A stretch of DNA of 57,482 bases. It comes from Lachnospiraceae bacterium. GTDB lineage: Bacteria; Bacillota; Clostridia; Lachnospirales; Lachnospiraceae. This document shows, piece after piece, positions 8,768 to 26,483 of this stretch. The number at the start of each line of letters is the position of its first letter. Position 1 is the stretch's first letter. A program made the translations under genes and the position numbers. The stretch is taken from contig JAGAQX010000151.1 of assembly GCA_017622535.1 (NCBI GenBank), positions 1-57,482 on the forward strand, written 5' to 3'. Below the pieces are notes generated by a model that made no database searches, was not told where the DNA came from, and saw only the letters and a program-made list of their open reading frames with translations.

Positions 8768-9181
8768 CTATTGCACCTTTGCAATCTTGATAGAAGAGCT
8801 CGCACCAGGATTCAACTCCACACTTAGCGATAACTTACCGCCAAGATTTGTCTTAACTGATCCCGTCTCGTTGCCGTTAATAATTGCAACATACTCCTGT
8901 CCGGCTTCCATTTCTAATGTAATCTGAGAATCTTCCGTTCCCTCAACCTCAAACTCAACCACATCATCACTTGCTTTAAAGTTATGCACGGTTGTTCCTG
9001 GTACCGATTCATATACAAAAGAACCATTTTTCTCTAATTTGGTAATCTCATTGAACGTCTTAACCTTATATTTGTCACCCTTGAAATCAAAACCATCCAT
9101 CTTGGTTTTGGAATCCAACTCATAATTACCAAAACACAATGCTCCATTCTCTTCCTTAATAAGTTCACTAACAACTGCCAT
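8768..9181 (-). CDS. Hypothetical soluble protein
   Basis: The ORF sits between clpC and radA. The likely start is the internal ATG at 9181 (MAVVSELIKE) with GGAGG 8 nt upstream; the track ORF extends to 9253. No family was recognised. Confidence 0.6.
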   Translation of the reverse strand: MAVVSELIKEENGALCFGNYELDSKTKMDGFDFKGDKYKVKTFNEITKLEKNGSFVYESVPGTTVHNFKASDDVVEFEVEGTEDSQITLEMEAGQEYVAIINGNETGSVKTNLGGKLSLSVELNPGASSSIKIAKVQ

Positions 9182-9410
9182 TCCATTATCCTCCTGTACA
9201 TATATGCACAATATTTTCGTGCCTTTAACCACATCATATTCATTACTTCTCATTCATACAAAAGAAGTAATTACACATGTCATTAGTATACAATATATAG
9301 TGTATTTTTGCTAGTGCATTTTTACTAAAAAATCAATTTTAAATAAAATATTTTTACTATTTTCATTTTAATTATTTTTCTATCTTAATTTGCTTTATAA
9401 ATTTGTTTCT

Positions 9411-9443
9411 AAATAAAACAAAGAGCTCGAAAACGAGCTCTTT
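9411..9443 (-). terminator. Rho-independent terminator after clpC
   Basis: A perfect 10-bp stem aaagagctcg/cgagctcttt has a 4-nt loop. It is followed on the minus strand by GTTTTATTT. Confidence 0.8.
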
Positions 9444-9450
9444 GATACTA

Positions 9451-11901
9451 TTATATCACCTTGAATTTTACTCCTGATTTGAGTACTGAAACACGAACCG
9501 TCTGACCTGCTTTAATATTACCAGCTAATAATTCTTCAGCCATTTTGTCCTCAATTTCATTCTGTATTGCACGACGCAATGGTCTTGCGCCATATTTCTT
9601 ATCATATCCCTTTTCAAAAATGTAATTCTTTACAGCTTCACCATAACGAAGGTCTATGTTCATCTGTTTCTTTACACGCTTTGCAAAATTCTTAAGTAAT
9701 AAATCTGCAATTTCTTTCACTTCATCCTTAGTCAAAGCATGGAACACAATCGTATCGTCGATACGGTTCAAAAACTCTGGTTTGAAAAGTCTTTTTACTT
9801 CTTCCATCACACCGCTCTTCATATACTCATGATCCTTTTCGTCAGAAGTCTCTCCTGCAAACCCTAACTTCTTCGGTTCCATAATTCTTGCAGCACCAGC
9901 ATTACTTGTCATAATGATAATTGTGTTCTTAAAATCCACTTTTCTACCTTGAGAATCTGTCACATGACCATCATCTAAAATTTGCAACAACACATTGAAA
10001 ATATCCACATGGGCCTTTTCGATTTCGTCAAATAAAATAACAGAATAAGGATTTCGTCTCACCTGCTCACTTAACTGTCCACCTTCCTCAAATCCAACAT
10101 ATCCCGGAGGCGAACCAATCATCTTTGAAACACTGTGTTTTTCCATATATTCTGACATATCTACGCGAATCATATTCTTCTCATCGCCAAATACAGCTTC
10201 CGCCAATGCCTTTGATAATTCAGTTTTACCTACACCTGTTGGTCCAAGGAACAAGAAAGAACCTGTTGGACGATTTGGATCCTTTAATCCAACTCTGCCG
10301 CGCTTAATTGCTTTGGCCACTGCATCCACAGCTTCATTCTGTCCAATTACGCGCTTATGCAATTCATCTTCTAAATGAAGAAGTTTCTTAGATTCTTCTT
10401 CCTGCAAACGACTTACCGGAATCTTCGTCCACTCAGAAACCACAACTGCAATATCTTCTTCATTTAAAACAAAACCTTGCGCTTTGCGGTTTGTTTCCTG
10501 TTTCTTCTTCATTTTTTCAAGCTTCTCTTCCAAAACCCGAATAGCCATCTTTGTCTCATGAGCTGCCTCTAAATCATTATCCATAAAGGATTGATCCAAC
10601 TCAATATTTAAAGCTGCTAATTCCTTCTCAATTTCTTGAATCTGTGGTGTTGTCTTGAATACTGCCAGCTTCTTTTTAGCAGCTGCTTCATCCATCAAAT
10701 CAATGGCTTTATCCGGCAAAAAGCGGTCATTCAAATAACGTATCGCTAGTTCTACACAGGCAAAAACCGCTTCATCACTAATACTCAACCCATGATGATA
10801 CTCATAACATGGACGTAATCCCTGCAAGATTGCCACAGTTTCCTCTTTTGTGGGTTCTGAAACATTCACTGGTTGGAATCGTCTCTCTAGCGCAGCATCC
10901 TTTTCAATATACTTGCGATATTCAGCAGTGGTTGTTGCACCAATCATCTGAATTTCCCCTCTTGAAAGAGCAGGTTTTAAAATATTGGATGCATCAATCG
11001 CACCTTCTGCACCACCTGCACCAATTATCGTGTGCAACTCATCCACAAATAAGATTACATTGCCTGCACTAATCACCTCAGCGATTAACTTCTTAATACG
11101 TTCCTCAAACTCACCACGATATTTGGATCCAGCCACCATACCAGAAATATCCAAAGAAAGTACCCTTTTTCCGACAACGGTTTCTGGTACTTCTCCTGCC
11201 ACAATCAACTGTGCAAGTCCTTCCACAATCGCAGTCTTACCCACACCAGGTTCACCAACTAGACATGGATTATTTTTCATGCGCCGACTCAAAATCTGAA
11301 CGACACGTTGCATCTCCTCTGTTCTACCAACAACCGGATCTAACTTCCCCTCTTTTGCCAACTTGGTAAAGTCTCTAGAATACTGATCTAATGTAGGAGT
11401 TGATGACTTCCCTTTCTTCTCCTTTGCCTTTAGGCTATTAAGCTCAGTTTTAGCCGCACTAGGCTCCATTCCCATTGCAGTTAAAATATCTCCATACAGC
11501 TTAGTTACCGAAATGTTCATTGCTGTCAACAAGCGAAATGCTACACTATCCGGATGCTTAATAATTGCAATTAACAAATGCTCTGTACCAATCTGCTGTG
11601 CTTTCAGCCTTGTCGATTCCTTTGCTGCCAAATTCAGAATATCCTGACAACGCTTTGAAAATTCCGCCTTATTTGCCAAAACCACATTACTGTGCTCCAT
11701 CATCAACTGACTAGTCAGGCTCTCTAACCGATCCTCTTCTACACCATTTTTTTCTAAAACCGCGTAAGCTATACCGCTTTTCTCCTTCATGAGACCTAGC
11801 AACAAGTGCTCACTGCCCACATACTCCTGGGTCAATTGGAATGCTATTTTCTTGGCATATCGCAATGCATTGTTTGCACTTTTTGTATAATTTTGCTTCA
11901 T
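9451..11901 (-). CDS. clpC: ATP-dependent Clp protease ATP-binding subunit ClpC
   Basis: It has Clp_N repeats and two AAA+ modules ([18 protein letters not shown]) and is about 816 aa. The start is probably the ATG at 11901, with GGAG 7 nt upstream; the track start is 11907. Confidence 0.93.
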
Positions 11902-11940
11902 TAACATTCTCCAATCTATTTTATTTTAACAAAGAACTAA

Positions 11941-12034: not shown

Positions 12035-13306
12035 TTACTGTTCGTCAATCGCTTTTCCAATATCATTACGCATATACTTATTTTCAAAGTCAATCCACTT
12101 TGTCGCCTCATATGCGTTGGCTCTTGCCGTCACTAAATCATCTCCCTTAGCTGTAACACCAAGAACACGACCACCGTTAGTTACAACCTTCCCATCTGCA
12201 AGCTTCGTTCCCGCATGGAAAACATAATAACCATCCTTATCATCAAAGGTATCTAAACCTTTAATCTCAAATCCCTTTTCATATGCAACTGGATATCCAT
12301 CTGAAGCCAATACAACACACACTGCCGCATTGTCTTCAAACTCCAAATCAATCTGGTCTAGCTTTCCATCCACACAAGCTTCCATTACATCAATGATATC
12401 ATTTTTCAAACGAGGTAAAACCACCTGGGCTTCCGGATCACCAAATCTAGCATTGAACTCTAATACCTTTGTACCCTTCTCAGTAATCATCAATCCTGTA
12501 AATAACACACCTACAAAATCTCTTCCTTCCGCTTTCATAGCTGCCATCGTTTTCTTATAAACTTCTTCCTGACAGAACGCATCAATCTCATCTGTATAGA
12601 ATGGACTTGGTGAAAATGTTCCCATACCACCGGTGTTAAGTCCCTGATCTCCGTCCTTTGCTCTCTTGTGATCCTGCGCAGATGTCATAGTCTTAATTGT
12701 TGTACCATCACAAAATGCAAGAACAGACACTTCACGTCCTGTCATAAACTCTTCAATTACCATCTTGTTACCAGCATCACCAAAATGCTTATCCAACATA
12801 ATTTCTTTCACGCCAGCTTTTGCTTCCTCTAAGTTGTTACAAATCAAAACACCCTTGCCAAGTGCAAGACCATCTGCCTTTAATACAATCGGAAACTCCG
12901 CTGTTTCAAGATATGCCAATGCCTCATCTGCATTATCAAAATTCTCATAAGCAGCTGTAGGAATACCATACTTTTTCATCAAATCCTTAGAAAATGCCTT
13001 AGAGCCTTCGATGATTGCTGCATTCTTACGAGGACCAAATACCTTCATTCCTTCTTTCTCAAATGCATCTACACAACCAGCTACCAATGGATCATCTGGT
13101 CCAACGATTACAAAGTCAATGGATTTTTCCTTTGCAAAAGCCACCAATTTGTCAAAATCCATTACTGAAATATCAACACATTCTGCTAATGCTGCAATTC
13201 CTGCGTTACCTGGTGCTGCGTATATTTTCGACACTCTCTTGCTCTTTGCAACACATGTTGCAATCGCATGCTCTCTACCGCCACTTCCAATAATTAAAAC
13301 TTTCAT
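12035..13306 (-). CDS. purD: Phosphoribosylamine-glycine ligase
   Basis: The N-terminus is MKVLIIGSGGREHA and an ATP-grasp core follows. The start is set at the internal ATG 13306, preceded by GGAGGAA; the track ORF extends to 13378. Confidence 0.93.
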   Translation of the reverse strand: MKVLIIGSGGREHAIATCVAKSKRVSKIYAAPGNAGIAALAECVDISVMDFDKLVAFAKEKSIDFVIVGPDDPLVAGCVDAFEKEGMKVFGPRKNAAIIEGSKAFSKDLMKKYGIPTAAYENFDNADEALAYLETAEFPIVLKADGLALGKGVLICNNLEEAKAGVKEIMLDKHFGDAGNKMVIEEFMTGREVSVLAFCDGTTIKTMTSAQDHKRAKDGDQGLNTGGMGTFSPSPFYTDEIDAFCQEEVYKKTMAAMKAEGRDFVGVLFTGLMITEKGTKVLEFNARFGDPEAQVVLPRLKNDIIDVMEACVDGKLDQIDLEFEDNAAVCVVLASDGYPVAYEKGFEIKGLDTFDDKDGYYVFHAGTKLADGKVVTNGGRVLGVTAKGDDLVTARANAYEATKWIDFENKYMRNDIGKAIDEQ

Positions 13307-13438
13307 GTTATTCCTCCTGCAATCTAGTATATTTCTCCGCCAAACAGCTTTCTTACTTTCTACTTGTAGTAATTCCATATCATTCAGCAGAGTTCATTTT
13401 TTCAAAACAACACTTACATACCTGTACTCAATCACATA

Positions 13439-14065
13439 CTATTCTGCAATCATTGTCTTTCCATCAACAACCTTAACCCTACCATTCGCAATCATATCAA
13501 TTGCCTGTGGCAACAACAACCATTCTGCCTGTTCCATAACACGACGCTGTAATACCTCTGGTGTATCACCATTCTCGACAGAAACAGCCTTCTGTAAAAT
13601 AATAGGGCCTGTGTCCGTTCCTTTATCCACAAAATGCACAGTTGCACCTACCACCTTTACGCCTCTTTCCAAAGCCGCTTCATGAACCTTCAATCCATAA
13701 AAACCGGTGCCACAAAAAGACGGTATTAAAGATGGATGAATATTAATAATTCGATTCTCATATTTATCAATCATAGCTGGTGGTATAACAACTAAATAAC
13801 CCGCCAACACAATCAAATCAACATTTAACGAATCTACTTTCTCCACCAAAGCTTGATTAAACTGCTCTCTATCAGCATAATCCTTAGGGGAAACTACAAT
13901 CCCTTCAATTCCTGCCTGTGCTGCACGTTCCAAGGCATAAGCACCTTTGTTATTACTAATGACAGCAACTAGCTCTGTATTTGTAATTGTACCAGCCTTC
14001 ACAGCATCAATAATCGCCTGTAAATTGGTACCACCACCGGACACCATAACCGCAACTCTAAGCAT
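13439..14065 (-). CDS. purN: Phosphoribosylglycinamide formyltransferase
   Basis: Motifs VMVSGGGTNLQAIID and IINIHPSLIPSF are present, and the protein is 208 aa. Confidence 0.92.
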   Translation of the reverse strand: MLRVAVMVSGGGTNLQAIIDAVKAGTITNTELVAVISNNKGAYALERAAQAGIEGIVVSPKDYADREQFNQALVEKVDSLNVDLIVLAGYLVVIPPAMIDKYENRIINIHPSLIPSFCGTGFYGLKVHEAALERGVKVVGATVHFVDKGTDTGPIILQKAVSVENGDTPEVLQRRVMEQAEWLLLPQAIDMIANGRVKVVDGKTMIAE

Positions 14066-14178
14066 ATTATTCTCCTTATCCTACTATCTTCTACATCCAA
14101 AAGATAATAGCTAAAATATTTGCAATAGCTAATCATCTATTGTCCAAACAAATCTTTTTCACTATATATAGCTTGCAA

Positions 14179-15204
14179 TTAGCAAAGTGTAACACCTTTT
14201 TCACCAGCTTCTACAGAACCAACAACATATGCCTCTTCACCTGCAGCTTTCAAAGCTTCAATCGTCTGATCAACATCTGCTGCATCCACTGCCAACATCA
14301 TACCAATACCCATATTGTATGTGTTATACATCATTTCCTCTGCAATTTCACCCTTAGAAGCCATTAATTTGAAAATTGCTGGCACTTCATAAGAATCCTT
14401 CTTTACAACCGCACGAACTCCTTCTGGTAACATTCTAGGAATATTCTCATAGAAGCCACCACCTGTAATATGAGAACAACCCTTAATGGTAACACCCGCT
14501 TCTTTTACACTTCTAAGCGCTTTCACATAAATCTTAGTTGGTGCAAGCAACGCTTCACCAAGAGTTTTTCCTAATTCGTCATAATAAGTTTCTAAAGATT
14601 CCTTTGTCATATCAAACACCTTACGAACCAATGAGAAACCATTGCTATGAACACCACTAGATGCAATACCAACTAGCACATCGCCAGCCTTAATATTCTG
14701 TCCAGTAATCAAATCCTTCTGATCAACGATACCTACCGCAAAACCTGCCAAATCGTATTCATCTTCAGGGTAGAAGCCTGGCATCTCTGCTGTTTCACCG
14801 CCAATCAATGCTGCGTCAGACTGCGCACAACCATCTGCAACACCACTTACAATCGTAGCAATCTTCTCTGGGAAATTCTTGCCACACGCAATATAATCTA
14901 AAAAGAATAATGGTTCTCCACCTGCACATGCAATATCATTCACACACATTGCTACACAGTCGATACCGATTGTGTCATGTTTATCCATAATAAACGCCAA
15001 CTTCAACTTCGTACCAACACCATCTGTTCCTGATACTAATGTAGGATGTTCCATATTTTTAAACTTATCAAGAGAAAATGCTCCAGAGAAACCACCAATA
15101 TTTGTCAGTACCTCTTCTCTCATAGTCTTCTTAATATGCTCCTTCATAAGCTCTACTGACTTATATCCTGCTTCAATATCCACTCCGGCCTTCTTGTAAT
15201 CCAT
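14179..15204 (-). CDS. purM: Phosphoribosylformylglycinamidine cyclo-ligase (AIR synthetase)
   Basis: Motifs [11 protein letters not shown] and GTDGVGTKL are present, and the protein is 341 aa. AGGAGG RBS. Confidence 0.93.
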
Positions 15205-15427
15205 TATTCTTATCCTCCTGAATTTTTAAATAATATAACTGTCACCTAACTGTTCGAGATTGACGATAAAATCTACAACCCTCTTTGAACAAATAAAAAT
15301 GACGTTATGTATTTCGCACTATCATTGGCAAGTATCACTACATATTGGTATACTTCCACAGCGCACGCACAACGTCATTATAATAAAAAACCATATTTTT
15401 GTAAAGAGTGGGCACAGACAAAATCAC

Positions 15428-17119
15428 TTATTCTGCGTAATCCACAATTTGTGTAATATCATACTGTTTATTTTGTATTCTTTGCTCAAAATCGCCCTTC
15501 GGCATCGGCTTGTCAAACAAGAAGCCCTGCACAATATAACATTCCATATCGTGTAAAAATTCTACCTGATTCCAATTCTCGACACCCTCTGACACAACGT
15601 CCATATTCAGCTGCTTTGCCATATGAATAATATTAGATAAAACAATACGATCCGTCTCTTCGTCAGTTCCTTGATCAATGAAGGATTTATCAATCTTCAA
15701 AATCTCCACTGGGAATGTACGCAAGATATTCAATGACGAATATCCTGTTCCGAAATCATCAATGGATACTGCAATCTGGCTATCCTTCATTCGATTCACA
15801 AATGCAGAAAGTAATCCTTGTTCTTCCTCGTCCGTTGTTTCTGTCACTTCTACTTCAATGTATTTAGGGTCTATATGATACTGATTTAGTAAATTTTGAA
15901 TCTTGTTCGCAAACTCTGGATTGGACAAATGCTTGCGGGAAAAATTAACAGAAACTCGAACTGGTTCAACACCACTATCTAACCATTCTCTAAGATCCCT
16001 ACATACCTGGTCTAATACATAAAAATCCAAATTGCAAATCGAACCATCTCGCTCAATAATAGGAATAAACTCACATGGCGAAATCAGCTTGTCATTCCGA
16101 TACCAACGTACCAAAGCTTCTGCGCCTATTAAATGATATGTATCCGTCTTAACCTTAGGCTGATAATAAACTTGAAACTCTCTATCTTTTAAAGCCTGTG
16201 TAAATGAACCCAATATTTTCTTTTCGTTATTGACACGTTCATTTAATTCTGTAGTAAAATAGACATATGGTTGTTTTGTAATATTTCTAGCTATACTTAA
16301 AGCCATAGCTCCATTACTAATTACACGCTCGCAATCAGATATGGAATCATCTATTTCATAAATACCTGCTGTTGCTGACAATATCACGGTAGATTGTTGT
16401 TCACCCAACATTCCATACGTAGCAGCACCTGATAAAAAGCGAATAAACTCCTCCGTTTTTTCTTTCTTGATCAGAGCCACAAAATTATCGCCACCCAATC
16501 TACCTATATACTCATCTTTGTCGATAAAAGCAAGTAACAAGCGTGCATATCTACATATAATATCATCCGCTTCCTGTTTTCCGAACTTTCTATTAATTAG
16601 ACCAAATCGCTTTAAGTTAAAACAAAAAGAATTATATTTTGTAATATTATCTTGTTCGTAAACCTTTTCTACTCTTTTCAAAAAGCCTTGTGTATTAGGA
16701 ATTCCAGTTACAACATCCGTAAGCATACTGTTTGAAATCTGCTGAATCAAACGAAACCTTCCACAATGGAAGAACAGGATATTCAAAATCATATCTAAGT
16801 CCACTTCTTCGCTTTCGTTCCATGCCTCGCAGCCATAGCCCCGATACAAATCTACATTCACGATTCCACCTTCACCAGTAGTGTAATTCTTCTTAAAAAC
16901 AAGCTGCTCATCTGCAACCTGCCCAGGCATCGCAAAGCTCCCACCTGTATTTATTCCATCTGGTGTAAATACATTCGGTGGAACCTGAAATGTCATCTCT
17001 AATCTCGCGATCTGGTACGAATCCCATAATAGTTCTATTGCTTTTTGTACACATTCAAACGTATTCTCATGTTTGGACAAAAGATCAACATATTCAGCAA
17101 AAACTGTACTACTTTTCAT
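15428..17119 (-). CDS. Signalling protein: unknown N-terminal domain plus degenerate GGDEF (GGDNF) plus intact EAL phosphodiesterase
   Basis: EAL motifs are EALVRW, VSVNFS, EVTET, DDFGTGYSSL, KIDKSF, EGVEN and QGFLF. The GGDEF motif reads RLGGDNF. The RBS GGAGGAA overlaps the last codons of the Hsp70 gene, with an 11-nt gap between the two genes. Confidence 0.85.
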   Translation of the reverse strand: MKSSTVFAEYVDLLSKHENTFECVQKAIELLWDSYQIARLEMTFQVPPNVFTPDGINTGGSFAMPGQVADEQLVFKKNYTTGEGGIVNVDLYRGYGCEAWNESEEVDLDMILNILFFHCGRFRLIQQISNSMLTDVVTGIPNTQGFLKRVEKVYEQDNITKYNSFCFNLKRFGLINRKFGKQEADDIICRYARLLLAFIDKDEYIGRLGGDNFVALIKKEKTEEFIRFLSGAATYGMLGEQQSTVILSATAGIYEIDDSISDCERVISNGAMALSIARNITKQPYVYFTTELNERVNNEKKILGSFTQALKDREFQVYYQPKVKTDTYHLIGAEALVRWYRNDKLISPCEFIPIIERDGSICNLDFYVLDQVCRDLREWLDSGVEPVRVSVNFSRKHLSNPEFANKIQNLLNQYHIDPKYIEVEVTETTDEEEQGLLSAFVNRMKDSQIAVSIDDFGTGYSSLNILRTFPVEILKIDKSFIDQGTDEETDRIVLSNIIHMAKQLNMDVVSEGVENWNQVEFLHDMECYIVQGFLFDKPMPKGDFEQRIQNKQYDITQIVDYAE

Positions 17120-17130
17120 TTTGCTTCCTC

Positions 17131-18819
17131 CTACTCTGTGAAATCTTCTAAAAACTCTTTAAACTCTCTTCTGGCTCCTTCAATCACACTATCATCTCTG
17201 GTATCCAAAGCCTTTTCAAATGCTCGCAAGGCGTATTCAATATACATTCGTTCATCACCAATGCTTTCTTCATACAAGCGTTCCCCTCGAAGTAAAAGTA
17301 ACTTGTTCTCTTCCTTCTCCCTTGGATGAATCTTGAGATAAGCAAGCGCTTCCATACGTTCTTTCACCTCTTCGTCTGTCATATCTGTAGCATTCGTTTT
17401 AATAATTTGTTTGGTAATCTCCCCTGTGGAAATAACCTTAATTTCAACTTCCAAAATAGAATTTACATCATACGTGTAAGTGACATCTACAGCTTCCTTA
17501 CCAGCCTCACCCTTTGGCACCCGAACTCGAATCTCTCCTAGCGAAACATTGTTGGATGCAAAACGACTTTCTCCCTGTAATACCTTGCAACGAATCTGGG
17601 TTTGATTGTCGTGTACTGTATATAACCGCTCAGTTCTACTTGCCGGAATTGTAGTGTTCCGTTCAATAATTGGGCAGAAATGCCCATCTTCAAACCGACC
17701 ATTTTCCTTCTCAATAACAATCTCTGTTCCAAGAGTAAATGGACATACATCCGTAAGAATCACTTCTTTAATACTATCCTTTCGCTCCTTCATAGCGCCC
17801 TGTACTGCTGCGCCTAAAGCCACAGCTTCATCTGGGTTAATAGATGTATCTGGCAGATTATGAAATAGCTTACCTACAAATTTACGAATAAATGATAGCT
17901 TGGTTGCACCACCAACTAAAACAACACGATTAATGTCTTTTAGTCTAACATTGGCATCTGAAAGGCTACGCTTAATTGGCTGGCGAATCTTGTCTAATAA
18001 TTCATCACATTTTGCCTCATATTCATCTATAGAAAGTCGCATCTCGTATGTCTCTTCTCCTAGCTTACAGCTCATAGTTGAATAGCGTTCTCCGTTAAAT
18101 TCAAGCTTGCAATTCTCTGCCTGCTTTGTAATATGCTTTAGCTCTTTTTGTGATAATATCTCTCTATTAATATCCGGATTTTTCTCGAAAAATATATCCT
18201 CAATGACTTTCGTAAAATCCTCGCCACCTAAGAAGTTATCTCCCGCTACTGCACGCACTTCGATTATTGAATCATATAATTCCAAAATAGATACATCAAA
18301 GGTTCCGCCGCCTAAGTCAAACACAAGAAACTTTCCATTTTCTCGATTTTCATACAAACCATAGGCAATAGCAGCCGCAGTGGGTTCACTGATAATTCGC
18401 TCCACCTTAAGCCCTGCTAATTCACCAGCACGCTTTGTTGCTTTTCTTCTCTCATCATTGAAATAAGCTGGCACACTGATAACTGCTTCCGTAACCTCCT
18501 CTTGCAAATAGTACTCCGCATCCTCTTTCAATGCACGCAGGATAAGTGCAGATAGTTCTTCTGGTAAAAACTTCTTACCAGAAAGCTCGTACTCCTTCTC
18601 ACTACCCATGCTACGTTTAAATACCGCCGCAGAGCTCTTTGGATAAAGGAGCATTCTCTCCTTTGCCGTTTCTCCAATATACACTTGTCCATCCTCATCT
18701 ACACTTACCACAGACGGTGTCAAATTCTTACCGAGTCGATTCGGAATAATCTTGGGTCCCTCATCCGTATAGTAAGCCACAAGGCTGTTTGTTGTTCCTA
18801 AATCAATACCAATAATCAT
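17131..18819 (-). CDS. Hsp70-family chaperone, short HscC-like form (562 aa)
   Basis: Motifs IIGIDLGTTNS, DLGGGTFDVS and VVLVGGATK define the actin-like NBD, and an SBD-beta follows. The protein has a shortened C-terminal lid and no EEVD-type tail. Confidence 0.88.
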   Translation of the reverse strand: MIIGIDLGTTNSLVAYYTDEGPKIIPNRLGKNLTPSVVSVDEDGQVYIGETAKERMLLYPKSSAAVFKRSMGSEKEYELSGKKFLPEELSALILRALKEDAEYYLQEEVTEAVISVPAYFNDERRKATKRAGELAGLKVERIISEPTAAAIAYGLYENRENGKFLVFDLGGGTFDVSILELYDSIIEVRAVAGDNFLGGEDFTKVIEDIFFEKNPDINREILSQKELKHITKQAENCKLEFNGERYSTMSCKLGEETYEMRLSIDEYEAKCDELLDKIRQPIKRSLSDANVRLKDINRVVLVGGATKLSFIRKFVGKLFHNLPDTSINPDEAVALGAAVQGAMKERKDSIKEVILTDVCPFTLGTEIVIEKENGRFEDGHFCPIIERNTTIPASRTERLYTVHDNQTQIRCKVLQGESRFASNNVSLGEIRVRVPKGEAGKEAVDVTYTYDVNSILEVEIKVISTGEITKQIIKTNATDMTDEEVKERMEALAYLKIHPREKEENKLLLLRGERLYEESIGDERMYIEYALRAFEKALDTRDDSVIEGARREFKEFLEDFTE

Positions 18820-18835
18820 ATCTATATCCTCATAT

Positions 18836-18865
18836 ATCTAAGCAATCCTACTAATCCTTTGTCAA
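18836..18865 (-). promoter_or_regulatory. Candidate promoter for the Hsp70-EAL pair
   Basis: The minus strand reads TTGACA (18865-18860), an 18-nt spacer, then TTAGAT (18841-18836). Confidence 0.4.
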
Positions 18866-18911
18866 AACAGATATTCCGAAAATATATTATCTGTACGCAA
18901 AGTCCAACTTT

Positions 18912-18953
18912 AACTATAACACAAAGCCACGAAGATTTCAAATCTCCGTGGCT
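18912..18953 (-). terminator. Strong hairpin (terminator or attenuator) between the J-TPR gene and the Hsp70 gene
   Basis: A stem of 13-14 bp forms between agccacgaagattt and aaatctccgtggct, with one G-U pair on the minus-strand RNA. It is followed on the minus strand by TTGTGTTATAGTT. Confidence 0.6.
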
Positions 18954-19043
18954 CATTTCAACAAACTTTTCGAGTACTATTACTGCTTATGTTTTATTAT
19001 GTTGTTACATGTTCTATCACAACCTTGTTTTCTCATAGTACTT

Positions 19044-22000
19044 CTACATTTTCTCTTCCAAACATTTTAAATGTCGCCTTGCCGTATAACAGTTCTTCTT
19101 ATTCTCAATCGTCTGCTTATACATACTCATTGCTTTTTCTTTATCGCCCTCCAGCTCTGCAATTAAGCCTTCTGCAAGATAGTATTCATAACAATCCTGG
19201 TACTCACAGGTAACACATAGATGACAAGGTTTCATTTGTGCTAAATATTCCTTTGCAGTAGATATACGTCCCGCACACATGTGCATTACAACTAAAACAT
19301 ATAGAAACATACGACGATATCTTTCATCCCGTAGGATTTCTTCTTCTCCGTTATGTCTCTTTAAAAATGCTTTTAAAAATTGGTCTGCCCAATGCTTTGC
19401 ATGTTTTGCATCACCCTTTTCAAAACAAACAGTTGCTCTAACAAAATCTAAATGCTCCTTATCTTGTGTATCATGTTCATCCGAAGAGCTATGGGCTATA
19501 GAATCAAACAGTATGCGGTCTGCCTTATCCAAATCACCTTTATCACGATAGTATTCCGCCACATCAGAAATTGCTTTTGCACAAATTTGTTTTGTAATAT
19601 AATGCCCTGGTTCCACCTTAAAATAGTAGTCTTCTGCTTTCACAATATCACCCATTTGATGATAAGCTTCTGCAATATCACAATATAGCTTCTGTTCCTT
19701 CTTATCCATCTCCGTTAATTTACCAGTAATGCCAGATGATATTTTGTTTGAAATACTTCGCTCTTTTTTCTCTTTTTTCACTTCCTCTAGCATTTCCACA
19801 TAAATCTCTATCGCCTTATCATATTTTCCGGCCTTTAAATATACGTTTGCAATATCTCTTCGTAAATGTGTCGCCTTTGGTCTTATACGTATAACCTCAT
19901 AATACATCTTAACTGCCTTGTCGTATTCTCCTGCCAAAGTATAACACTCCGCCAAATTCAAATACGGTAAATGATCCTTATCTGGATCCATTGCAATCGC
20001 TTGTTCTAATGGTACAATCGCCTCTTCAATGCGACGTAGTTTTAGCAATGCACAACCAAGATTGTTGTATGCATAATATGCATCCGAATCCAAATCGATT
20101 GCCATTTTACAATCATCTACAGCTTTCTCTAACTCATATAAATCAATGTATAAGTTTCCACGTTCCACATATCCTTCTGCTGCATTTGTCACCTCAATAA
20201 ATCGTGATGCGTACTCCACTGCCGTTGCACACTGACTCAAATCATCATTTTCATTGCTCAAATAACTGTGGATATACATCATTCTACGAAGTGCCGGCGC
20301 ATATTTGGGATCAATACTTAAAATCTCTTTATAACACGCAATTGCTTTATTGGTATTATCCAATCTTTCGTAGGAATTACCCACTCTTGTTTTGGCATAA
20401 AGGTTATCTGGCTCCAATTGCACTAATCGCTCGCATATATCTAACGCTTCCTGAATGCGTTTTTCTCGATTCAATACATCTACCTTTAAATGTAACATTG
20501 TTGTATTATCTGGCTGCTTTACAAGATACTCCTCAATGATGTTAAGCGCCCTTGCGGTGTCATCCAAATCCCAATACAGAATTGCATATTCCTTTTCCAA
20601 CTCCGCCATTTCTTCTATATCTGTTTCTCGTTCCTTTGAGGAATAAATCTTATCACGCAATTGTTCCATTAACGCCAAGGCCTTTTCCGTATTTTCTTTT
20701 GAAAATGCTTTGTAATGAACACAACGAATCTCATACAAATCCAAGCTGTCACTTTCTAGTTCTAATTCTCTTGCTGCTCCAATCACTTGCTCCACATCAT
20801 CATATTGGTCAAATGCATAGAACACCTCTGCAGCCAACACATAAGGCGGTACATAAGCTGGATATATTTCAATACATGCAAAATAATCATCAATTACTTC
20901 TTTCGCATGCTTTAATTTGTAATGTGCTTTCTGCCTATGAACATAAGCTGGGAAGAATCCTCTATCCCTTTCCAAAATGGAATCACACATTTCGATACAA
21001 GCTTCATAGCGCTCTGCTTCTAAATAGAACCGTGCCAGCTGTTCCATATAAGAAAACTTAACCAATGTATTATTCTCTTCCTGAATTGCTGTCTCTATAT
21101 AATGCTTTACTCGTTCAATTATGGAATCTTTGTCATCCTTAGCTGCATTCTTAAATTCATTTTCCCAATAACAAATTCCGATAGAAAAATGCGCCAATGA
21201 CAAACGATTCTTTCTTTTTTGTGCTTCCTTTGAACCATCATCTTCGGACTGTTCAATTAGTTCTAACCATTTCTGTGCGAAAGGTAATGCTTCCCGATAA
21301 TGGTCACCTGCTAGATACAAACGACAACGAAGATTAATATAATCATACTCCTCAGAAGCTTCCAACTGATCTAATAATTGAATACCTTCCTCAAATTTCT
21401 TTTGCTGATAATAACACCAACCAAGCTTGTAGCACACGTCCGGAATCAGCTCTTTCTCTAACTCAGTCTCATATCGTTCCACCAAAACAAGATTGATTTT
21501 ATCTAATAATGTCAGACTATCTGCATCCTGAACACGGTCTTCTAAAACATCCTCAACCTGTTCCTTTGCCTCCTCTGGATTTCCTTCCAAGAACACACAA
21601 TTTGCCATACCTAACATTGCCGTATAATTCTTCTCATCTGCATCCAACAATGCCTGATAAATAGCTTTTGCATTCTCAATCTTACCATTTTCAATTAAGG
21701 TCTCTGCATAGATTCTTTCAATATACTGATTAGACGAATACTCAAAATCTAACTCTTCCATGATGGAAAGCGCAGCCTTTAGCAATTGTTTTCTTTCCTC
21801 TTCCAACTCATCTCTTTCCTGCGCATTCAAAACAGGTTCTGTCTGCTTTCCGTCATTCTCTTCCACTTTATTCAATTTCTCAGCTATCAACTCTGCTTCT
21901 AGTAGTATACAACGAGCTTCCTCTGTTTCAGTAAATGGATGCGTAACATCAAAGCGTTTCAATTCCTTCAACAACTGCTTTACCTTATCTAAGTCTCTTT

Positions 22001-22601
22001 CCTCAGAAACTGCCTTCAGCTCATATATTTTATTAATATAAGCATCTACATCCTTATCGGTTTCCCCACCGAACAATTCGTAATCGATAAATCCCGGTCT
22101 GTTAATCTGCCACTTGACAAATTCCAGATAATTTTCTGGAAACTTTTCTTTTAAATGCTCCATATTCTCTATGTATCCAAAGCGTTTGTCTACCAGCTGC
22201 CAAATACTTTGAGGCATATTGGAATGGGACATAAAATAGGCTAGTAGTTTTTCGCCAGCCTCTAATTCTGTATCGAGATTATCACATACGGAATCTTTCA
22301 AAAGTTCCTTCCATTTATCCTCCTGAATACGGGTCTTAACATCGCAATAAATGATATCTACTTTATCAATCCATAAATCTACATCATTCTTCTTACCCTT
22401 GAATTCCGGCTCTGTGCCATCAACCTCCTCTTCTGTTTCCGGACGTTTTGCATAAGCAAGTGCTTCCTCATATGCTTGACGTAGCTCCATAAAACCCTGT
22501 TGGTCATCCTCTGGATTAACAAAACGAAGCTTTTCTCGATATGCATTACGAATCACCTCTTCGTCTTTGGTTTTTTCTATCTCTAATATTTTCCAAATCA
22601 T
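19044..22601 (-). CDS. Giant J-domain / TPR-repeat protein (1185 aa) with NPE in place of the HPD motif
   Basis: The N-terminus WKILEIEKTKDEEVIRNAYREKLRFVNPEDDQQGFMELRQAYEEAL has the J-domain helix II-loop-helix III pattern. More than 15 TPR-like repeats follow. The C-terminal cysteine cluster is CHLCVTCEYQDC. Confidence 0.8.
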   Translation of the reverse strand: MIWKILEIEKTKDEEVIRNAYREKLRFVNPEDDQQGFMELRQAYEEALAYAKRPETEEEVDGTEPEFKGKKNDVDLWIDKVDIIYCDVKTRIQEDKWKELLKDSVCDNLDTELEAGEKLLAYFMSHSNMPQSIWQLVDKRFGYIENMEHLKEKFPENYLEFVKWQINRPGFIDYELFGGETDKDVDAYINKIYELKAVSEERDLDKVKQLLKELKRFDVTHPFTETEEARCILLEAELIAEKLNKVEENDGKQTEPVLNAQERDELEEERKQLLKAALSIMEELDFEYSSNQYIERIYAETLIENGKIENAKAIYQALLDADEKNYTAMLGMANCVFLEGNPEEAKEQVEDVLEDRVQDADSLTLLDKINLVLVERYETELEKELIPDVCYKLGWCYYQQKKFEEGIQLLDQLEASEEYDYINLRCRLYLAGDHYREALPFAQKWLELIEQSEDDGSKEAQKRKNRLSLAHFSIGICYWENEFKNAAKDDKDSIIERVKHYIETAIQEENNTLVKFSYMEQLARFYLEAERYEACIEMCDSILERDRGFFPAYVHRQKAHYKLKHAKEVIDDYFACIEIYPAYVPPYVLAAEVFYAFDQYDDVEQVIGAARELELESDSLDLYEIRCVHYKAFSKENTEKALALMEQLRDKIYSSKERETDIEEMAELEKEYAILYWDLDDTARALNIIEEYLVKQPDNTTMLHLKVDVLNREKRIQEALDICERLVQLEPDNLYAKTRVGNSYERLDNTNKAIACYKEILSIDPKYAPALRRMMYIHSYLSNENDDLSQCATAVEYASRFIEVTNAAEGYVERGNLYIDLYELEKAVDDCKMAIDLDSDAYYAYNNLGCALLKLRRIEEAIVPLEQAIAMDPDKDHLPYLNLAECYTLAGEYDKAVKMYYEVIRIRPKATHLRRDIANVYLKAGKYDKAIEIYVEMLEEVKKEKKERSISNKISSGITGKLTEMDKKEQKLYCDIAEAYHQMGDIVKAEDYYFKVEPGHYITKQICAKAISDVAEYYRDKGDLDKADRILFDSIAHSSSDEHDTQDKEHLDFVRATVCFEKGDAKHAKHWADQFLKAFLKRHNGEEEILRDERYRRMFLYVLVVMHMCAGRISTAKEYLAQMKPCHLCVTCEYQDCYEYYLAEGLIAELEGDKEKAMSMYKQTIENKKNCYTARRHLKCLEEKM

Positions 22602-22644: not shown

Positions 22645-22683
22645 ATTGTACCATAAATATAAGACAGTAAAAATCTTTTTCAA
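22645..22683 (-). promoter_or_regulatory. Candidate promoter(s) for the J-TPR gene
   Basis: The minus strand reads TTGAAA (22683-22678), a 16-nt spacer, then TATATT (22661-22656). An overlapping extended -10, TGgTACAAT, ends at 22645. Confidence 0.45.
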
Positions 22684-22715: not shown

Positions 22716-22755
22716 ATAATAACAAAAGAAGCGAAAACACACTTGTCTCCGCTTC
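22716..22755 (-). terminator. Rho-independent terminator after purE
   Basis: On the minus-strand RNA an 8-bp stem (gaagcgga/uucgcuuc, one G-U) with a 12-nt loop is followed by UUUUGUUAUUAUU. Confidence 0.55.
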
Positions 22756-22784
22756 CTTATCACCTATTACTCTAATTACGTAGC

Positions 22785-23273
22785 TTATGCAAACTTTGCA
22801 ATCACTTCTTCATTCGCTTTCATAGCCGCTTCTTCCATTTCTTTTCTCTCATCCCACAACTGATTCTTAATGGTCTCATGCTTACCAGCCATAATCTGAA
22901 GTGCGAGATAAGCTGCATTCTTACTTCCGTTAATTGCTACTGTAGCAACCGGAATTCCAGGTGGCATCTGAACGATAGACATTAGAGCATCCATTCCATC
23001 TAAATTAGAACCTGCGATTGGTACACCAATAACAGGGAGTACCGTTTGTGAAGCTACTACACCAGGTAATGCTGCGGCCATTCCCGCTGCCGCAATGATA
23101 GCCTCTGTTCCATCGTTATTGCATTCATCAATAAATGCAGATAAACCCACATGTGCTCTATGCGCTGACAAACATCTTACATTTACTTCTACTCCATATT
23201 TCTTTAATACATCTACTGCTGGTTCAACCTTTGGTAAATCGCTTGTTGAACCCATAATAATTGCAACCTTCAT
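22785..23273 (-). CDS. purE: N5-carboxyaminoimidazole ribonucleotide mutase
   Basis: Motifs MKVAIIMGSTSDLP and AGMAAALPGVVA are present, and the protein is 162 aa. Confidence 0.93.
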   Translation of the reverse strand: MKVAIIMGSTSDLPKVEPAVDVLKKYGVEVNVRCLSAHRAHVGLSAFIDECNNDGTEAIIAAAGMAAALPGVVASQTVLPVIGVPIAGSNLDGMDALMSIVQMPPGIPVATVAINGSKNAAYLALQIMAGKHETIKNQLWDERKEMEEAAMKANEEVIAKFA

Positions 23274-23376: not shown

Positions 23377-25389
23377 TCAATTATTCGCTTCTTTGTACTT
23401 CTCCTCAAACTCTTCGATTGGCATAGGCTTTGCAAAATAGTATCCCTGAATCAAGTCACAGTTCTGTGTTGCCAAGAAATCTACCTGTTCTCTGCTCTCA
23501 ATACCCTCTGCAACAATCTTCATCTCAAGCTTCTTTGCAAGCTCAATCACATTCGATACAATCTTCATTCCTCGTTCTAGTGAATCAGCACCTCGGAAGA
23601 AATCTGCATCTATCTTCAATACATCAATATGTAATTCCTTCAAGGAATTCAACGAAGAATAACCAGCACCAAAATCATCCATTGAAACAATGAAACCATG
23701 GTCTCTCAATTTCTTAACTGTATTAAGCAGCACCTGTTTGTCATCAAAAAAAGCACTTTCTGTCAGTTCTAATTCGATAACATCGTGTGGAATTTGAAAC
23801 CTATCCACAAGCCCACAGATATGTTCTGCCAAGTCCTCCCTCGTAAAATGTGCTCTTGAAACATTGACAGATATAGGAACAACCTCTTTTCCTTCTCCAA
23901 TCCATTTGGCTTGTTGCCTTGCAACCTCTTCTATCATATAATCGTCAAGTTGTAGGATAAATCCATTCTTTTCAAAAATCGGAATAAATCGATTCGGCGG
24001 AATAAAACCTTCTACTGGATGAACCCAACGTACCAATGCTTCCGCACCTGCCATTCGCTCTTCCTTTGCACTGTACTTCGGTTGCAAATACACCTTGAAT
24101 TCCTTATTCTTCAAGGCACGCTCCATCTCATCTTCCACCTTACGCTCCCAAAGCTGCTGCTTTTTCATTTCTATATCAAAAAAAGCAATTCTAATTTCTG
24201 CATCCTCATCTAATAAGGCGGTTGCTGCCATAGCATTATTGAATAATTCTTCAATATCCTGGCTACGATTTTCCACAAGACATACACCAGAACTAAAATA
24301 TAATTTGATGTTTGGAGTTATGTTATTCAGTAACTTTTCAATATTCTCAATTCGGCTCTTTAACTCCTCCACCTCATCATATTTTAATAACAAAGCAAAA
24401 TCCGCCTGTTCATAATGTGCCATGGCTTCTTTACGTCTTACTTGTTTTTTCAGCACATTGTAAAATCGTTCCAAAAGCTCTTCTCCGTCCTTCACACCAA
24501 AACAGGTACAAAAACTTCGATATTTCTCCATACGAAAATGAATTACAGCATAAAAATTGCGATTGCCATAATTTCTTTTTATTAACCTGCCACCTTTTCG
24601 TACAAAAGATAGCCAATTCTCACCACCAGTTACAATGTCTGTGTACAGCACCTTTGTTACCCTGCTTTGACTTGCAATCAAACCGATTATAGTAAAAATA
24701 TAATAAATGATAAAAATCACTAGTAATGCTGCAAACATCAAAGCAACAAATATCAATAAAACTACATCATAAGAATATACAGCAATATGGTTTAATACAT
24801 TTATCTCCATATCCTCTACCGGAAATACATACCACAGCTTTAAAGCTGCCAAAGGCACATATTTCTCTTCATTCGTTTTATCCAATTGTGATAATATAGT
24901 TTTAATATCAATTTTCTTTAGAAATCCTTTATTTACAGAATATTCATCACCTTGTTTTACAACCACATTCTGTTCATCTTCTTCAATTATTATGTCATAG
25001 TCAACATAGCCATTTTCCTCATTGAATAATTCCATATATGTTAGTCGAACACTCTGATCCGGATATCTTCCATTACTAGACCATTCTTCCTCGCCTGCAC
25101 GAACAATACTCACCGCTTCTACTTCATCGTTCAAAGCAATATCGGTTAGTATTCCCTCATAGGATTGTTCTAAGTTCTCAACATTCGGTTCCACATGTCT
25201 TCTAACAATATGACTAGACGCTTCATAACTACTGGTAATCTTATCATCAACCACATCTACTACACTAGTTACTAACACTATTAACATAAACACAAAGAAT
25301 ACGGATGCAATTAGGAAAAGACCCAAAATAGATGGCCATATTCTTTTTCGTTTTAATTTTTTAATTCTTTTATCTTTTGATTTACTCAT
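23377..25389 (-). CDS. Membrane sensor with degenerate GGDEF and intact EAL phosphodiesterase
   Basis: Two TM helices flank an extracytoplasmic domain of about 170 aa. The GGDEF position reads EQADF. EAL motifs are EALVRW, ELTES, DDFGAGYSSL, KIDADF, EGIES and QGYYF. Confidence 0.85.
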   Translation of the reverse strand: MSKSKDKRIKKLKRKRIWPSILGLFLIASVFFVFMLIVLVTSVVDVVDDKITSSYEASSHIVRRHVEPNVENLEQSYEGILTDIALNDEVEAVSIVRAGEEEWSSNGRYPDQSVRLTYMELFNEENGYVDYDIIIEEDEQNVVVKQGDEYSVNKGFLKKIDIKTILSQLDKTNEEKYVPLAALKLWYVFPVEDMEINVLNHIAVYSYDVVLLIFVALMFAALLVIFIIYYIFTIIGLIASQSRVTKVLYTDIVTGGENWLSFVRKGGRLIKRNYGNRNFYAVIHFRMEKYRSFCTCFGVKDGEELLERFYNVLKKQVRRKEAMAHYEQADFALLLKYDEVEELKSRIENIEKLLNNITPNIKLYFSSGVCLVENRSQDIEELFNNAMAATALLDEDAEIRIAFFDIEMKKQQLWERKVEDEMERALKNKEFKVYLQPKYSAKEERMAGAEALVRWVHPVEGFIPPNRFIPIFEKNGFILQLDDYMIEEVARQQAKWIGEGKEVVPISVNVSRAHFTREDLAEHICGLVDRFQIPHDVIELELTESAFFDDKQVLLNTVKKLRDHGFIVSMDDFGAGYSSLNSLKELHIDVLKIDADFFRGADSLERGMKIVSNVIELAKKLEMKIVAEGIESREQVDFLATQNCDLIQGYYFAKPMPIEEFEEKYKEANN

Positions 25390-25406: not shown

Positions 25407-26483
25407 TTAATCTTCATACACTACAACTCGATTTCTTCCTTCTGTTTTAGCTCGATACAGCGCTTTATCTGCACATTCAATTGCACTATGATAATTGCCA
25501 CCTTTGTATGCAGCTACACCGATTGAAGCAGTAATTGGGCATATCGAATTATCACTTGCCTCAATATTTACACGAAGCTTCTCGGCAATCGTTGCGCCAA
25601 TTTCAATATCACAGCCAGAAAGAATAATCAAAAATTCCTCACCGCCCCAGCGAATGATGTAATCCGTTGAACGTACCGATTGGCTTATCACTTTAACTGT
25701 ATGTTTCAACACAACATCTCCAGACTCATGACCGTATTGATCATTGACATTTTTGAAGAAATCTAAATCTACAATCAAGAAAGCTACTGGTACCTCTGAA
25801 GCTATATTCAGTTCTTCCGTAATAGGGTCACTAATCTTTTTTAACTTGTTACGATTAAACACACCTGTCAGTTGATCATGTACCACTAAAGTTTCCAACT
25901 GCTCTGTCACCAAATAGTGATCAAGATAAACCTTTTCCATTGTATAATGCATGACACAAACAGCCACAATACACGGAACATTAAACATAAGCATCATTGC
26001 TACATTGTCATATCTTATAAATATATTAGCAATTAATATATCAACTGCTAAACCACAATGTGCAATCAAGGCATATTTGTAAGGGGCGCAAAATCCAACA
26101 CATACAAATATCAAGTTCATGATAATCATGCCTTCACCTGCATATTCCCTGTCAGGCAATATATAGGTTGCCCAGTCTGTGCACCATATAATGATATGTA
26201 CCATCAGGTAGGAAGCAATTACCATTAATTTGTAGCCCTTATTCTGTTTATATAAATACATAAACGCCAACAAAGGCAAAATTACAATCAAACGTGATAA
26301 CAATGTCTCATGTGCAAATCTACCGAATATTCCACAATCGGTAAAGAAAAAAGTCAAATACGCAACGGTTGCGATAATCAAAACTCCACGGTTAAATGAT
26401 TTGTAATAATCATACTTTGATTGATAAAATTCTACTTGTTGCTCAGTCGATAACTGTTTTGCCTTTGTAATCATTTGTTCCAT
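25407..26483 (-). CDS. Membrane diguanylate cyclase (GGEEF, with RxxD I-site)
   Basis: An N-terminal domain of about 6 TM helices is followed by a GGDEF domain (RWGGEEFLIIL). RSTD lies five residues upstream of GGEEF. A 17-nt gap separates it from the downstream EAL gene. Confidence 0.88.
   Translation of the reverse strand: MEQMITKAKQLSTEQQVEFYQSKYDYYKSFNRGVLIIATVAYLTFFFTDCGIFGRFAHETLLSRLIVILPLLAFMYLYKQNKGYKLMVIASYLMVHIIIWCTDWATYILPDREYAGEGMIIMNLIFVCVGFCAPYKYALIAHCGLAVDILIANIFIRYDNVAMMLMFNVPCIVAVCVMHYTMEKVYLDHYLVTEQLETLVVHDQLTGVFNRNKLKKISDPITEELNIASEVPVAFLIVDLDFFKNVNDQYGHESGDVVLKHTVKVISQSVRSTDYIIRWGGEEFLIILSGCDIEIGATIAEKLRVNIEASDNSICPITASIGVAAYKGGNYHSAIECADKALYRAKTEGRNRVVVYED

Follow-up and report, generated by a model that had tools for sequence, protein, structure and literature searches.

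An HscC-type Hsp70, a TPR-fused relative of DjlB and DjlC, and the EAL gene that follows them at a Lachnospiraceae locus

Of the three types of bacterial Hsp70, HscC is the one least understood. Its clients are unknown, and the only phenotypes known for it, sensitivity to Cd2+ and to UV, come from E. coli (PMC8215388, PMC13580251). Its ATPase is stimulated by DjlC only, and the residues by which an Hsp70 contacts GrpE are not conserved in it (Kluck et al. 2002, summarised in PMC8215388). The subject here is a locus on contig JAGAQX010000151.1 of a Lachnospiraceae bacterium, where an HscC-type Hsp70 is preceded by the gene for a large protein made of an N-terminal J-domain and tetratricopeptide repeats (TPR), called J-TPR below, and followed by a gene whose product is predicted to degrade cyclic di-GMP (c-di-GMP). 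The stretch analysed, 57,482 nt with a G+C content of about 37%, is called the window, and all coordinates refer to it. Its nearest relatives are uncultured gut Lachnospiraceae.

An earlier note, made from the letters of the sequence, saw in these genes a single module that couples a chaperone to a c-di-GMP phosphodiesterase. Its description of the genes holds: there are three co-directional open reading frames (ORFs) of 1185, 562 and 563 aa, all on the minus strand, and the sizes and domains that it gave are right. The module as proposed, however, is not a conserved system. It is likely, in my judgement, that the conserved functional unit consists of two genes, one for the HscC-type Hsp70 and one for a dedicated, TPR-fused co-chaperone of the DjlB/DjlC family, and that the EAL gene is an accessory. 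The comparison behind this view covers 80 loci, one genome per species, with a gene for a close relative of the Hsp70, which were searched with the proteins of the window and all of whose ORFs were clustered.

The pair of genes and its conservation

In the survey set, 72 of the 77 loci where this could be assessed have the J-TPR gene immediately before hscC. The two are often very close: 28 of 70 loci have at most 12 nt between them, and in 21 loci the genes overlap by the 4 nt of an ATGA. Hsp70 identity among the 80 loci ranges from 69 to 93%. The window belongs to a genus-level clade in which the pair is embedded among purine genes, between purE/purC and purM, and in the 29 related loci that share this arrangement the order is purE - (purC) - J-TPR - hscC - purM - purN - purD. 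Another clade, of 46 loci at about 70% Hsp70 identity and including Hungatella hathewayi DSM 13479, carries the pair in several different contexts, with variable neighbours that are mostly housekeeping genes (RluA, RsmB, YitT, DacA, DinB, NrdD, PspA and others). Even among more distant members of the J-TPR family, those with the triad HPE described below, an HscC-type gene follows immediately in three of the five that were looked up.

The product of the second gene matches the Pfam family HSP70 at 5e-127. Its identity to E. coli HscC is 41-42% across 557 aa (E 1e-150), that to DnaK 37-38%, and since the margin is small, the assignment of the protein rests mainly on shared insertions and deletions. 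The hallmarks of HscC are a length of 550-580 aa, a short tail, a deletion in lobe I (DnaK about 76-101), a deletion at D211, an insertion in loop L1,2 and a deletion in helix B (PMC8215388). The length of 562 aa fits this range, and the protein has in common with E. coli HscC a gap at about DnaK 80-104, in lobe I of the nucleotide-binding domain, and a 4-aa deletion beside D211 (DnaK 208-211 are missing in 63 of 63 relatives). At the positions where E. coli HscC has them, it also carries a 9-aa insertion around VIEKENGRFED, in loop L1,2 of the beta-subdomain that binds substrate, and lacks 12 alignment columns of lid helix B. The lid is shorter than that of DnaK, and the alignment stops about 45 residues before the DnaK C-terminus, leaving no tail, much as the earlier note had it in calling the protein a short, HscC-like Hsp70 with a reduced lid. 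Homologues at 89-91% identity bear the NCBI name 'molecular chaperone HscC', and the NCBIfam models for HscA score far under their cut-offs on this protein. By these marks of its sequence the protein is a member of the HscC subfamily.

The 1185-aa protein begins with 52 residues that are 56% identical to the J-domain of DjlC (E 2e-13) and 58% identical to that of DjlB (E 4e-14). An acidic, disordered linker (residues 53-72) leads to a second domain, which AlphaFold2 (AF2) models as all-helical with a predicted local distance difference test (pLDDT) of 95-98. The Pfam family DjlB_C_2nd (PF27158) has a precomputed match (E <= 1e-5) on the 1185-aa protein of the near-identical contigs L083 and L084, and hhalign aligns the region with DjlB at a probability of 98.5% over 161 columns (query 4-171). 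The parallel with E. coli HscC and its partners DjlB and DjlC, which the earlier note drew, is thus well founded on both proteins, through the identity and indels of the Hsp70 and through the J-domain and second domain of its neighbour.

Pfam TPR families match the remainder in fragments, at about aa 281-490 and 640-1030, with no match at aa 551-670 or 1001-1185. The protein had been credited with more than 15 repeats; the many matches bear out an array, but that count is not confirmed and TPR are recognised only at about aa 290-490 and 640-1030. The best-conserved stretch outside the J-domain, aa 551-602, has a mean top-residue frequency of 0.71 and no Pfam TPR match, and within it P551, A552, R556, Q557, V569, D571, D572, Y573, P586, Y587, A590, F594, Q599 and D602 are each at least 95% conserved. 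The C-terminal Cys cluster that had been seen in the sequence (C1126/C1129/C1132/C1137) is real: across 67 homologues the last three cysteines are conserved in 100%, E1139 in at least 95% and C1126 in 72%. The cluster may bind metal, which would be of interest because E. coli hscC mutants are sensitive to Cd2+. No tail-anchoring transmembrane segment was seen, the C-terminal 900 aa being TPR-like with a hydrophilic end (...HLKCLEEKM), though no dedicated predictor of such segments was run. The protein would then be a relative of DjlB and DjlC in which some 900 aa of soluble TPR-like repeats and a Cys cluster take the place of the membrane anchor, and it is predicted to be soluble on that account.

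Some further observations concern the pair and its surroundings. The C-termini of HscC from 74 loci (17131-17154 in the window) end in an acidic-hydrophobic FLE[E/D/M][F/M][T/E]E, reminiscent of the eukaryotic EEVD tails that TPR clamps bind. In three loci (L011, L018 and L019) hscC, at 86-89% identity to that of the window, does not adjoin a J-TPR gene; in L018 the latter lies 6 kb upstream. Downstream of hscC in the same three loci are genes for a 308-aa TPR protein and for HflX. Seven loci of one subclade within the Hungatella clade (e.g. L046:11693-11968) have an ORF for a very acidic protein of 91 aa directly after hscC on the same strand.

A J-domain with the triad NPE

The earlier note spoke of a J-like domain at the N-terminus. 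The domain is there, and is of the DjlB/DjlC type, but where the triad HPD is expected it has NPE: N29-P30-E31 aligns with H33-P34-D35 of DnaJ, and both HPD and HPE are absent. The Pfam match to DnaJ (PF00226), at residues 3-45, is below threshold, 21.4 bits against a gathering cut-off of 27.8. The same is true of DjlC and DjlB, experimentally validated J-proteins, which score 19.3 and 21.1 bits. When a profile of the N-terminal family is compared with the PDB, about 25 solved J-domains are found, DnaJ (1BQZ) first at E 5e-4 and 5NRO_B among them. AF2 models residues 1-290 at pLDDT 93, with helices of the J-domain at 2-6, 14-25 and 34-52 (pLDDT >90); helix IV is not evident in the model. A Foldseek search of this 290-aa N-terminal model against the PDB gave no significant match (all E > 0.9), so the J-domain is recognised by its sequence profile and not by a search with its fold.

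The unusual triad recurs in relatives. Among the 67 closest of them, N29, P30, E31, D32 and D33 each reach a conservation of at least 95%, and all five are invariant in a subset of 25 of 25 sequences. An exhaustive search with residues 1-240 (the J-domain plus the DjlB_C_2nd module), clustered at 50% identity, brought up 2538 clusters at E <= 1e-3 and 265 at E <= 1e-30. Among the best 150 family representatives (P0121-P0270), nearly all of them 1000-1200 aa long, about 133 have NPE and about 17 (some 11%) have HPE.

Large surveys of J-proteins have retained sequences with HPD only and have regarded HPE as a rare variant, with DjlB and DjlC as its types (PMC10410713). According to a 2026 review, HPE 'seems to be' the sole replacement of HPD that is tolerated, QPD and HPN being inactive and abolishing the function of DnaJ (PMC13254874). 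By this light it is unexpected that a protein with such close coupling to its Hsp70 should have Asn, without variation, where the His belongs. Surveys that look for J-proteins with the DnaJ model or by HPD would probably miss the whole group. Current annotation misses them as well: a homologue at 58% identity carries only the name 'tetratricopeptide repeat protein', and J-TPR proteins are in practice annotated as TPR proteins and nothing else.

The other side of the contact can also be read. In the HscCs of 63 of 63 NPE partners, the equivalents of DnaK R167, E171, T173, E206, E217 and V218, and of the linker, are intact. The 63 HscCs paired with NPE proteins and the four paired with HPE proteins share the same canonical J-interface and are told apart by two positions, K347 and D479, a comparison that is confounded by phylogeny.

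The EAL gene and the layout of the locus

The third gene encodes a protein with a strong Pfam match to EAL (3.8e-63) and a weak one to GGDEF (1.3e-14). All the catalytic motifs of an EAL domain are present (EAL, N, ExxE, DDFGTG, K, EGVE, Q(G)) and nearly invariant in 60 relatives, and the product is accordingly predicted to be an EAL c-di-GMP phosphodiesterase. The motif of an active diguanylate cyclase, GG[DE]EF, is replaced by GGDNF both in the protein from the window and in 118 of 123 relatives. This is the combination that had been reported, together with an unknown N-terminal part. That part spans 125 aa and has no Pfam match. AF2 folds it confidently (pLDDT 93.6) into a small alpha/beta domain of topology a-a-b4-a, for which Foldseek finds weak matches to the ligand domains of SdiA and CepR2 and to GAF (E 2e-3 to 6e-3, TM-scores 0.54-0.62). 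Used alone as a word-index query the N-domain gave seven candidates and one match, and relatives were obtained with the full-length query; among the matches listed, the best 120 full-length relatives extend down to 45-50% identity at 97-99% coverage. The best similarities in NCBIfam are to the models for DibA, GepA and DosP, all far under the equivalog cut-offs.

The gene-neighbourhood check that the earlier note recommended, whether an EAL or GGDEF gene is conserved downstream, has a negative outcome: it is not conserved, which largely refutes the proposed module in the terms of the note itself. An EAL gene follows hscC in only 9 of the 80 loci (L001, L003, L004, L015, L017, L020, L022, L024 and L025), and on the Hsp70 tree these fall into two subclades of the single pur-embedded clade. 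In 21 sister loci hscC is followed directly by the purM promoter, with no EAL gene between, and the 46 loci of the other clade all lack a GGDEF or EAL gene beside the pair. The EAL protein evolves quickly, with 37-63% identity where the Hsp70 shows 84-93%, and GGDNF recurs in the EAL-carrying loci except L025, where the motif search gave none. The neighbourhoods of four full-length relatives on long contigs (47-50% identity, with the same N-domain and GGDNF) are unrelated and contain neither an Hsp70 nor a TPR gene. To judge by these distributions, the EAL gene is a lineage-specific accessory, which a part of one genus-level clade, and no other, has gained or kept, and its product belongs to a common family of stand-alone Lachnospiraceae phosphodiesterases with a small, sensor-like N-domain. 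Because the gene is found in so few loci and its relatives live elsewhere, the link to c-di-GMP is to be taken as an operon arrangement of one lineage and not as a property of the chaperone system.

How the locus is transcribed can be predicted from its signals (Table 1). The three genes are flanked by purE (23273..22785) upstream and purM-purN-purD (15204..12035) downstream. The earlier note had them as a compact unit with its own promoter and with terminators on both flanks. On the upstream side this stands, for there is a promoter-like site and, before it, the hairpin of purE. The unit is split, however, by the 224-nt spacer between J-TPR and hscC, which contains a hairpin overlapping a promoter with a TG-extended -10, and no convincing terminator was found 3' of the EAL gene; the structure there has a z-score of -1.1 and lies downstream of purM's own promoter. 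An equivalent hairpin between J-TPR and hscC is present in at least 12 related loci (L003, L004, L006, L008, L010, L014, L016, L017, L020, L022, L024 and L071), and the string TTTTGTGTTATAGT/TTTTGTGTTATAAT, comprising the T-run and the TG-extended -10, is kept right after it in relatives. The purM promoter too is conserved in relatives, directly after hscC or after the EAL gene, whichever comes last.

No terminator was found between hscC and the EAL gene, and their junction of 11 nt, at which AGGAGG as the ribosome-binding site (RBS) overlaps the TAG stop codon of hscC, is just as had been described. The three genes are probably not one transcription unit. With an intergenic hairpin and promoter on one side and purM's own promoter on the other, the predicted units are [J-TPR], [hscC-EAL] and [purM...], and in the source organism hscC most likely shares a transcript with the EAL gene and is linked to it in translation. 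One bovine gut metatranscriptome contained two 151-nt contigs within hscC and none across the gene junctions.

Table 1. Coordinates of the features of the locus in the window, from upstream to downstream (free energies, dG, in kcal/mol; z, z-score)
Feature	Coordinates	Strand	Basis
purE terminator hairpin, upstream boundary	22725..22758	minus	15-pair stem then T-run; dG -21.8 kcal/mol, z -6.3
Promoter-like site of J-TPR gene	22656..22683	minus	TTGAAA-16-TATATT, 10/12 consensus positions; consensus match only
J-TPR gene, DjlB/DjlC-type co-chaperone with TPR array, 1185 aa	19044..22601	minus	ORF, Pfam, homologues upstream of hscC
J-domain, aa 1-55, helices I-III	22437..22601	minus	Identity to DjlC/DjlB, profile, AF2
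NPE triad (N29 P30 E31) at the canonical HPD position	22509..22517	minus	Alignment with DnaJ
Second domain, all-helical, counterpart of Pfam DjlB_C_2nd, about aa 73-250	21852..22385	minus	PF27158, hhalign, AF2
TPR/TPR-like helical repeat region, about aa 290-1185	19047..21734	minus	Pfam TPR fragments
Best-conserved block of the repeat region, aa 551-602	20796..20951	minus	Alignment conservation
C-terminal Cys cluster, C1126-x2-C1129-x2-C1132-x4-C1137-x-E1139	19185..19226	minus	Alignment conservation
Intergenic hairpin J-TPR/hscC, terminator-like or attenuator	18924..18954	minus	14-bp stem, dG -20.4, z -5.1
Promoter-like site of hscC, overlapping the hairpin	18913..18941	minus	TTGAAA-17-TATAGT, TG extension
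hscC-type Hsp70 gene, 562 aa	17131..18819	minus	Pfam HSP70, HscC identity, indels
hscC stop, overlapping AGGAGG RBS and 11-nt spacer	17120..17133	minus	Direct sequence reading
GGDNF-EAL gene, 563 aa, predicted c-di-GMP phosphodiesterase, lineage-specific accessory	15428..17119	minus	Pfam, locus survey
N-terminal domain of the EAL protein, aa 1-125	16745..17119	minus	AF2, Foldseek
Degenerate GGDEF active-site motif GGDNF, aa 209-213	16481..16495	minus	Sequence, family alignment
EAL domain, aa 306-538, all catalytic motifs	15506..16204	minus	Pfam, alignment
purM promoter, downstream boundary	15377..15405	minus	TTTACA-17-TATAAT, 11/12 consensus positions

Elsewhere in the window, the purM promoter (region 15295-15405) has behind it, in the leader, an imperfect hairpin of some length and then a U-run, with a fold no better than that of shuffled sequences (z -1.1). 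Rfam finds two tRNAs across the whole window and nothing else, and the spacer between the EAL gene and purM has no match even at E <= 1. Upstream of purE are two c-di-GMP genes, 17 nt apart on the same strand and both syntenic in the closest relatives: one for a membrane GGDEF*-EAL protein (23377-25389, 670 aa), the other for a diguanylate cyclase with GGEEF (25407-26483, 358 aa). Downstream of purD (7274-11907) lie genes for a ClpC-like double AAA+ protein (818 aa), syntenic across all the pur-clade loci, and for a RadA-like protein (451 aa). In the region 27946-34202, a plus-strand stretch with reversed GC skew (28-30 kb) encodes a CoA-transferase and is adjoined by a 607-aa leucine-rich-repeat protein on the minus strand and a ricin-lectin/C39-like peptidase protein on the plus strand.

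Mechanism, alternatives and known systems

I propose the following for the pair. The J-domain of the J-TPR protein would dock on the nucleotide-binding domain of HscC and trigger hydrolysis of ATP, as judged from HscC with DjlC and from the general Hsp70 cycle. The TPR array would select and present a restricted set of client proteins or complexes, and it might, more speculatively, also hold the acidic-hydrophobic C-terminal tail of HscC, as a TPR clamp holds EEVD. Exchange of nucleotide would be spontaneous, with no need of a GrpE-type factor. The J-TPR gene is predicted to be transcribed from its own promoter up to the hairpin and hscC from the second promoter, and the EAL gene would share the expression of hscC without being a defining component of the chaperone system.

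There are observations that tell against this proposal. In five loci hscC has no adjacent J-TPR gene, and two of the five HPE-type J-TPR genes have no adjacent Hsp70. The His of the triad is replaced by Asn, and since QPD and HPN are inactive and HPE is thought to be the only replacement tolerated, stimulation of the ATPase is not assured. Finally, the EAL gene has been kept at 9-60 nt behind hscC in all nine loci that carry it, although within its two subclades the protein has diverged to 45% identity, which hints at selection for co-expression, and to call it a mere passenger may be to understate its role. That the NPE domain, without its His, is a fully functional trigger of an HscC that has co-evolved with it is a tentative idea, to which I would give somewhat less than an even chance. 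The main rival on mechanism, which is itself unlikely, holds that an NPE J-domain cannot trigger hydrolysis. As a 'type IV' J-like protein, the J-TPR protein would then recruit HscC or keep it in place, in the manner of a scaffold or tether, or it would compete with a different J-protein. The change of His to Asn, the inactivity of the QPD and HPN variants (PMC13254874) and the sub-threshold Pfam score all speak for it, but the last loses force from the equally low scores of the genuine DjlC and DjlB. A scaffold must also be squared with the invariance of NPEDD, which is therefore under strong selection, with the occurrence of HPE and NPE versions within one family of the same architecture and with the same HscC partner, and with the intact J-interface and linker in every HscC that has an NPE partner.

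The other alternatives concern what the pair is for. If the EAL protein were a client or partner of HscC and the J-TPR protein, for example through binding of its N-domain by the TPR, then the three genes would in this lineage form one module for chaperone-gated c-di-GMP signalling, and the RBS laid over the hscC stop codon, the lack of a terminator at this junction and the tight arrangement maintained in nine related species would all be accounted for. It is improbable all the same: 21 sister species and all 46 loci of the other clade have the pair and lack the EAL gene, the family with the same N-domain and GGDNF stands alone in unrelated contexts, and the N-domain resembles, weakly, a small ligand-sensor fold rather than a peptide that TPR would bind. 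Nor is an EAL gene next to the pair unusual, since another two c-di-GMP genes are present within 10 kb. Some conflict systems contain TPR arrays and Hsp70-like ATPases. The earlier note had thought of a conflict system with TPR for recognition, and one might imagine an anti-phage or other system of this kind in which the Hsp70 serves as ATPase. The two distant HPE-type genes without an Hsp70 do have suggestive neighbours, the one (L090:844-5333) lying after a SUKH_5/SMI1_KNR4 gene and the other (L093:1932-6654) before a gene with a PIN7 domain. The idea is nonetheless very improbable, given that PADLOC yields no meaningful matches (the best, at E 1.3e-3 and 2.2e-3, are marginal and cover short stretches), that the pair has no effector domain, that its position is stable within clades and its neighbours mostly housekeeping genes (pur genes, RluA, RsmB, NrdD, DinB), and that the Hsp70 is so highly conserved. 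It is equally hard to credit that the pair serves purine biosynthesis, as the order of pur genes around it in 29 related loci might suggest, when 46 loci of the other clade have it in several unrelated contexts and when the pur genes on either side are set apart by a terminator of purE and a conserved promoter of purM.

In Lachnospiraceae, as this locus shows, the HscC system takes the form of a tightly linked pair of HscC and a soluble, TPR-fused relative of DjlB/C. The pair offers a way to find clients, since the TPR array could be used as bait. If the NPE domain is indeed a trigger, then a family of proteins of about 1100 aa, with at least 265 clusters, breaks the rule that the His of a J-domain is indispensable, and gut Clostridia would have a soluble HscC system of major extent; in some lineages its clients might include the co-expressed phosphodiesterase. 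That NPE and HPE versions occur within one family makes a natural experiment on the strictness of the HPD rule. As regards c-di-GMP the outcome is mostly negative: the adjacency is specific to a lineage and is not to be taken for a new signalling architecture. A literature search, which did not cover Barriot et al. 2020, found no paper on HscC with c-di-GMP, on HscC in clostridia, on J-domains with NPE or on TPR-fused J-proteins in defence.

It remains to place these proteins among those already known. The EAL protein is like the phosphodiesterases of the DibA, DosP/PdeO and PdeA type in its GGDEF*-EAL tandem, where the GGDEF motif is degenerate and the EAL set intact, and unlike them in its 125-aa N-terminal domain, which is without annotation and weakly similar to GAF and LuxR ligand domains. 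The pair resembles HscA/HscB of the iron-sulphur (Fe-S) system in that a specialised Hsp70 of bacteria works with a J-protein of its own, exclusive to it, and does not need GrpE (PMC8215388). It differs from it in belonging to another Hsp70 subfamily and in having no IscU or Fe-S genes nearby. Eukaryotic DNAJC7 (TPR2) and DNAJC3 (p58IPK) unite in one polypeptide a TPR array, which binds clients or the tails of chaperones, and a J-domain that drives Hsp70. In those proteins, however, the J-domain is C-terminal and has HPD, whereas in the J-TPR protein it is N-terminal and has NPE, and the likeness is one of generic TPR and J similarity (p58IPK appears as an insignificant Foldseek match), an analogy rather than a family. 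'DnaJ-TPR' is, for that matter, a recognised class C architecture (PMC10410713).

The closest described system is that of E. coli HscC with DjlC (YbeV) and DjlB (YbeS). The two agree in the indels of the Hsp70, in a J-domain followed by a PF27158 domain, in a triad that ends in Glu and in the neighbourhood of the genes, and they part in the triad itself (NPE in place of HPE) and in the possession of some 900 aa of TPR-like repeats and a Cys cluster in place of a tail anchor. At the hscC locus of E. coli K-12 (L081, positions 675570-683393 of the record), the genes beside djlB and djlC encode YbeQ and YbeT, with TPR-like Sel1 repeats, and the DUF1266 proteins YbeR and YbeU; the locus in the window has neither DUF1266 genes nor separate Sel1-repeat genes nearby. 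Comparison of profiles finds nothing between the J-TPR protein and DUF1266 (YbeU), and between it and YbeQ a generic similarity of repeats at a probability of 31%. The E. coli djlC and hscC genes converge, whereas the J-TPR gene shares its strand with hscC, immediately precedes it and in many cases is coupled to it in translation; and the repeat proteins that in the E. coli locus are separate genes are in the present one fused to the J-protein.

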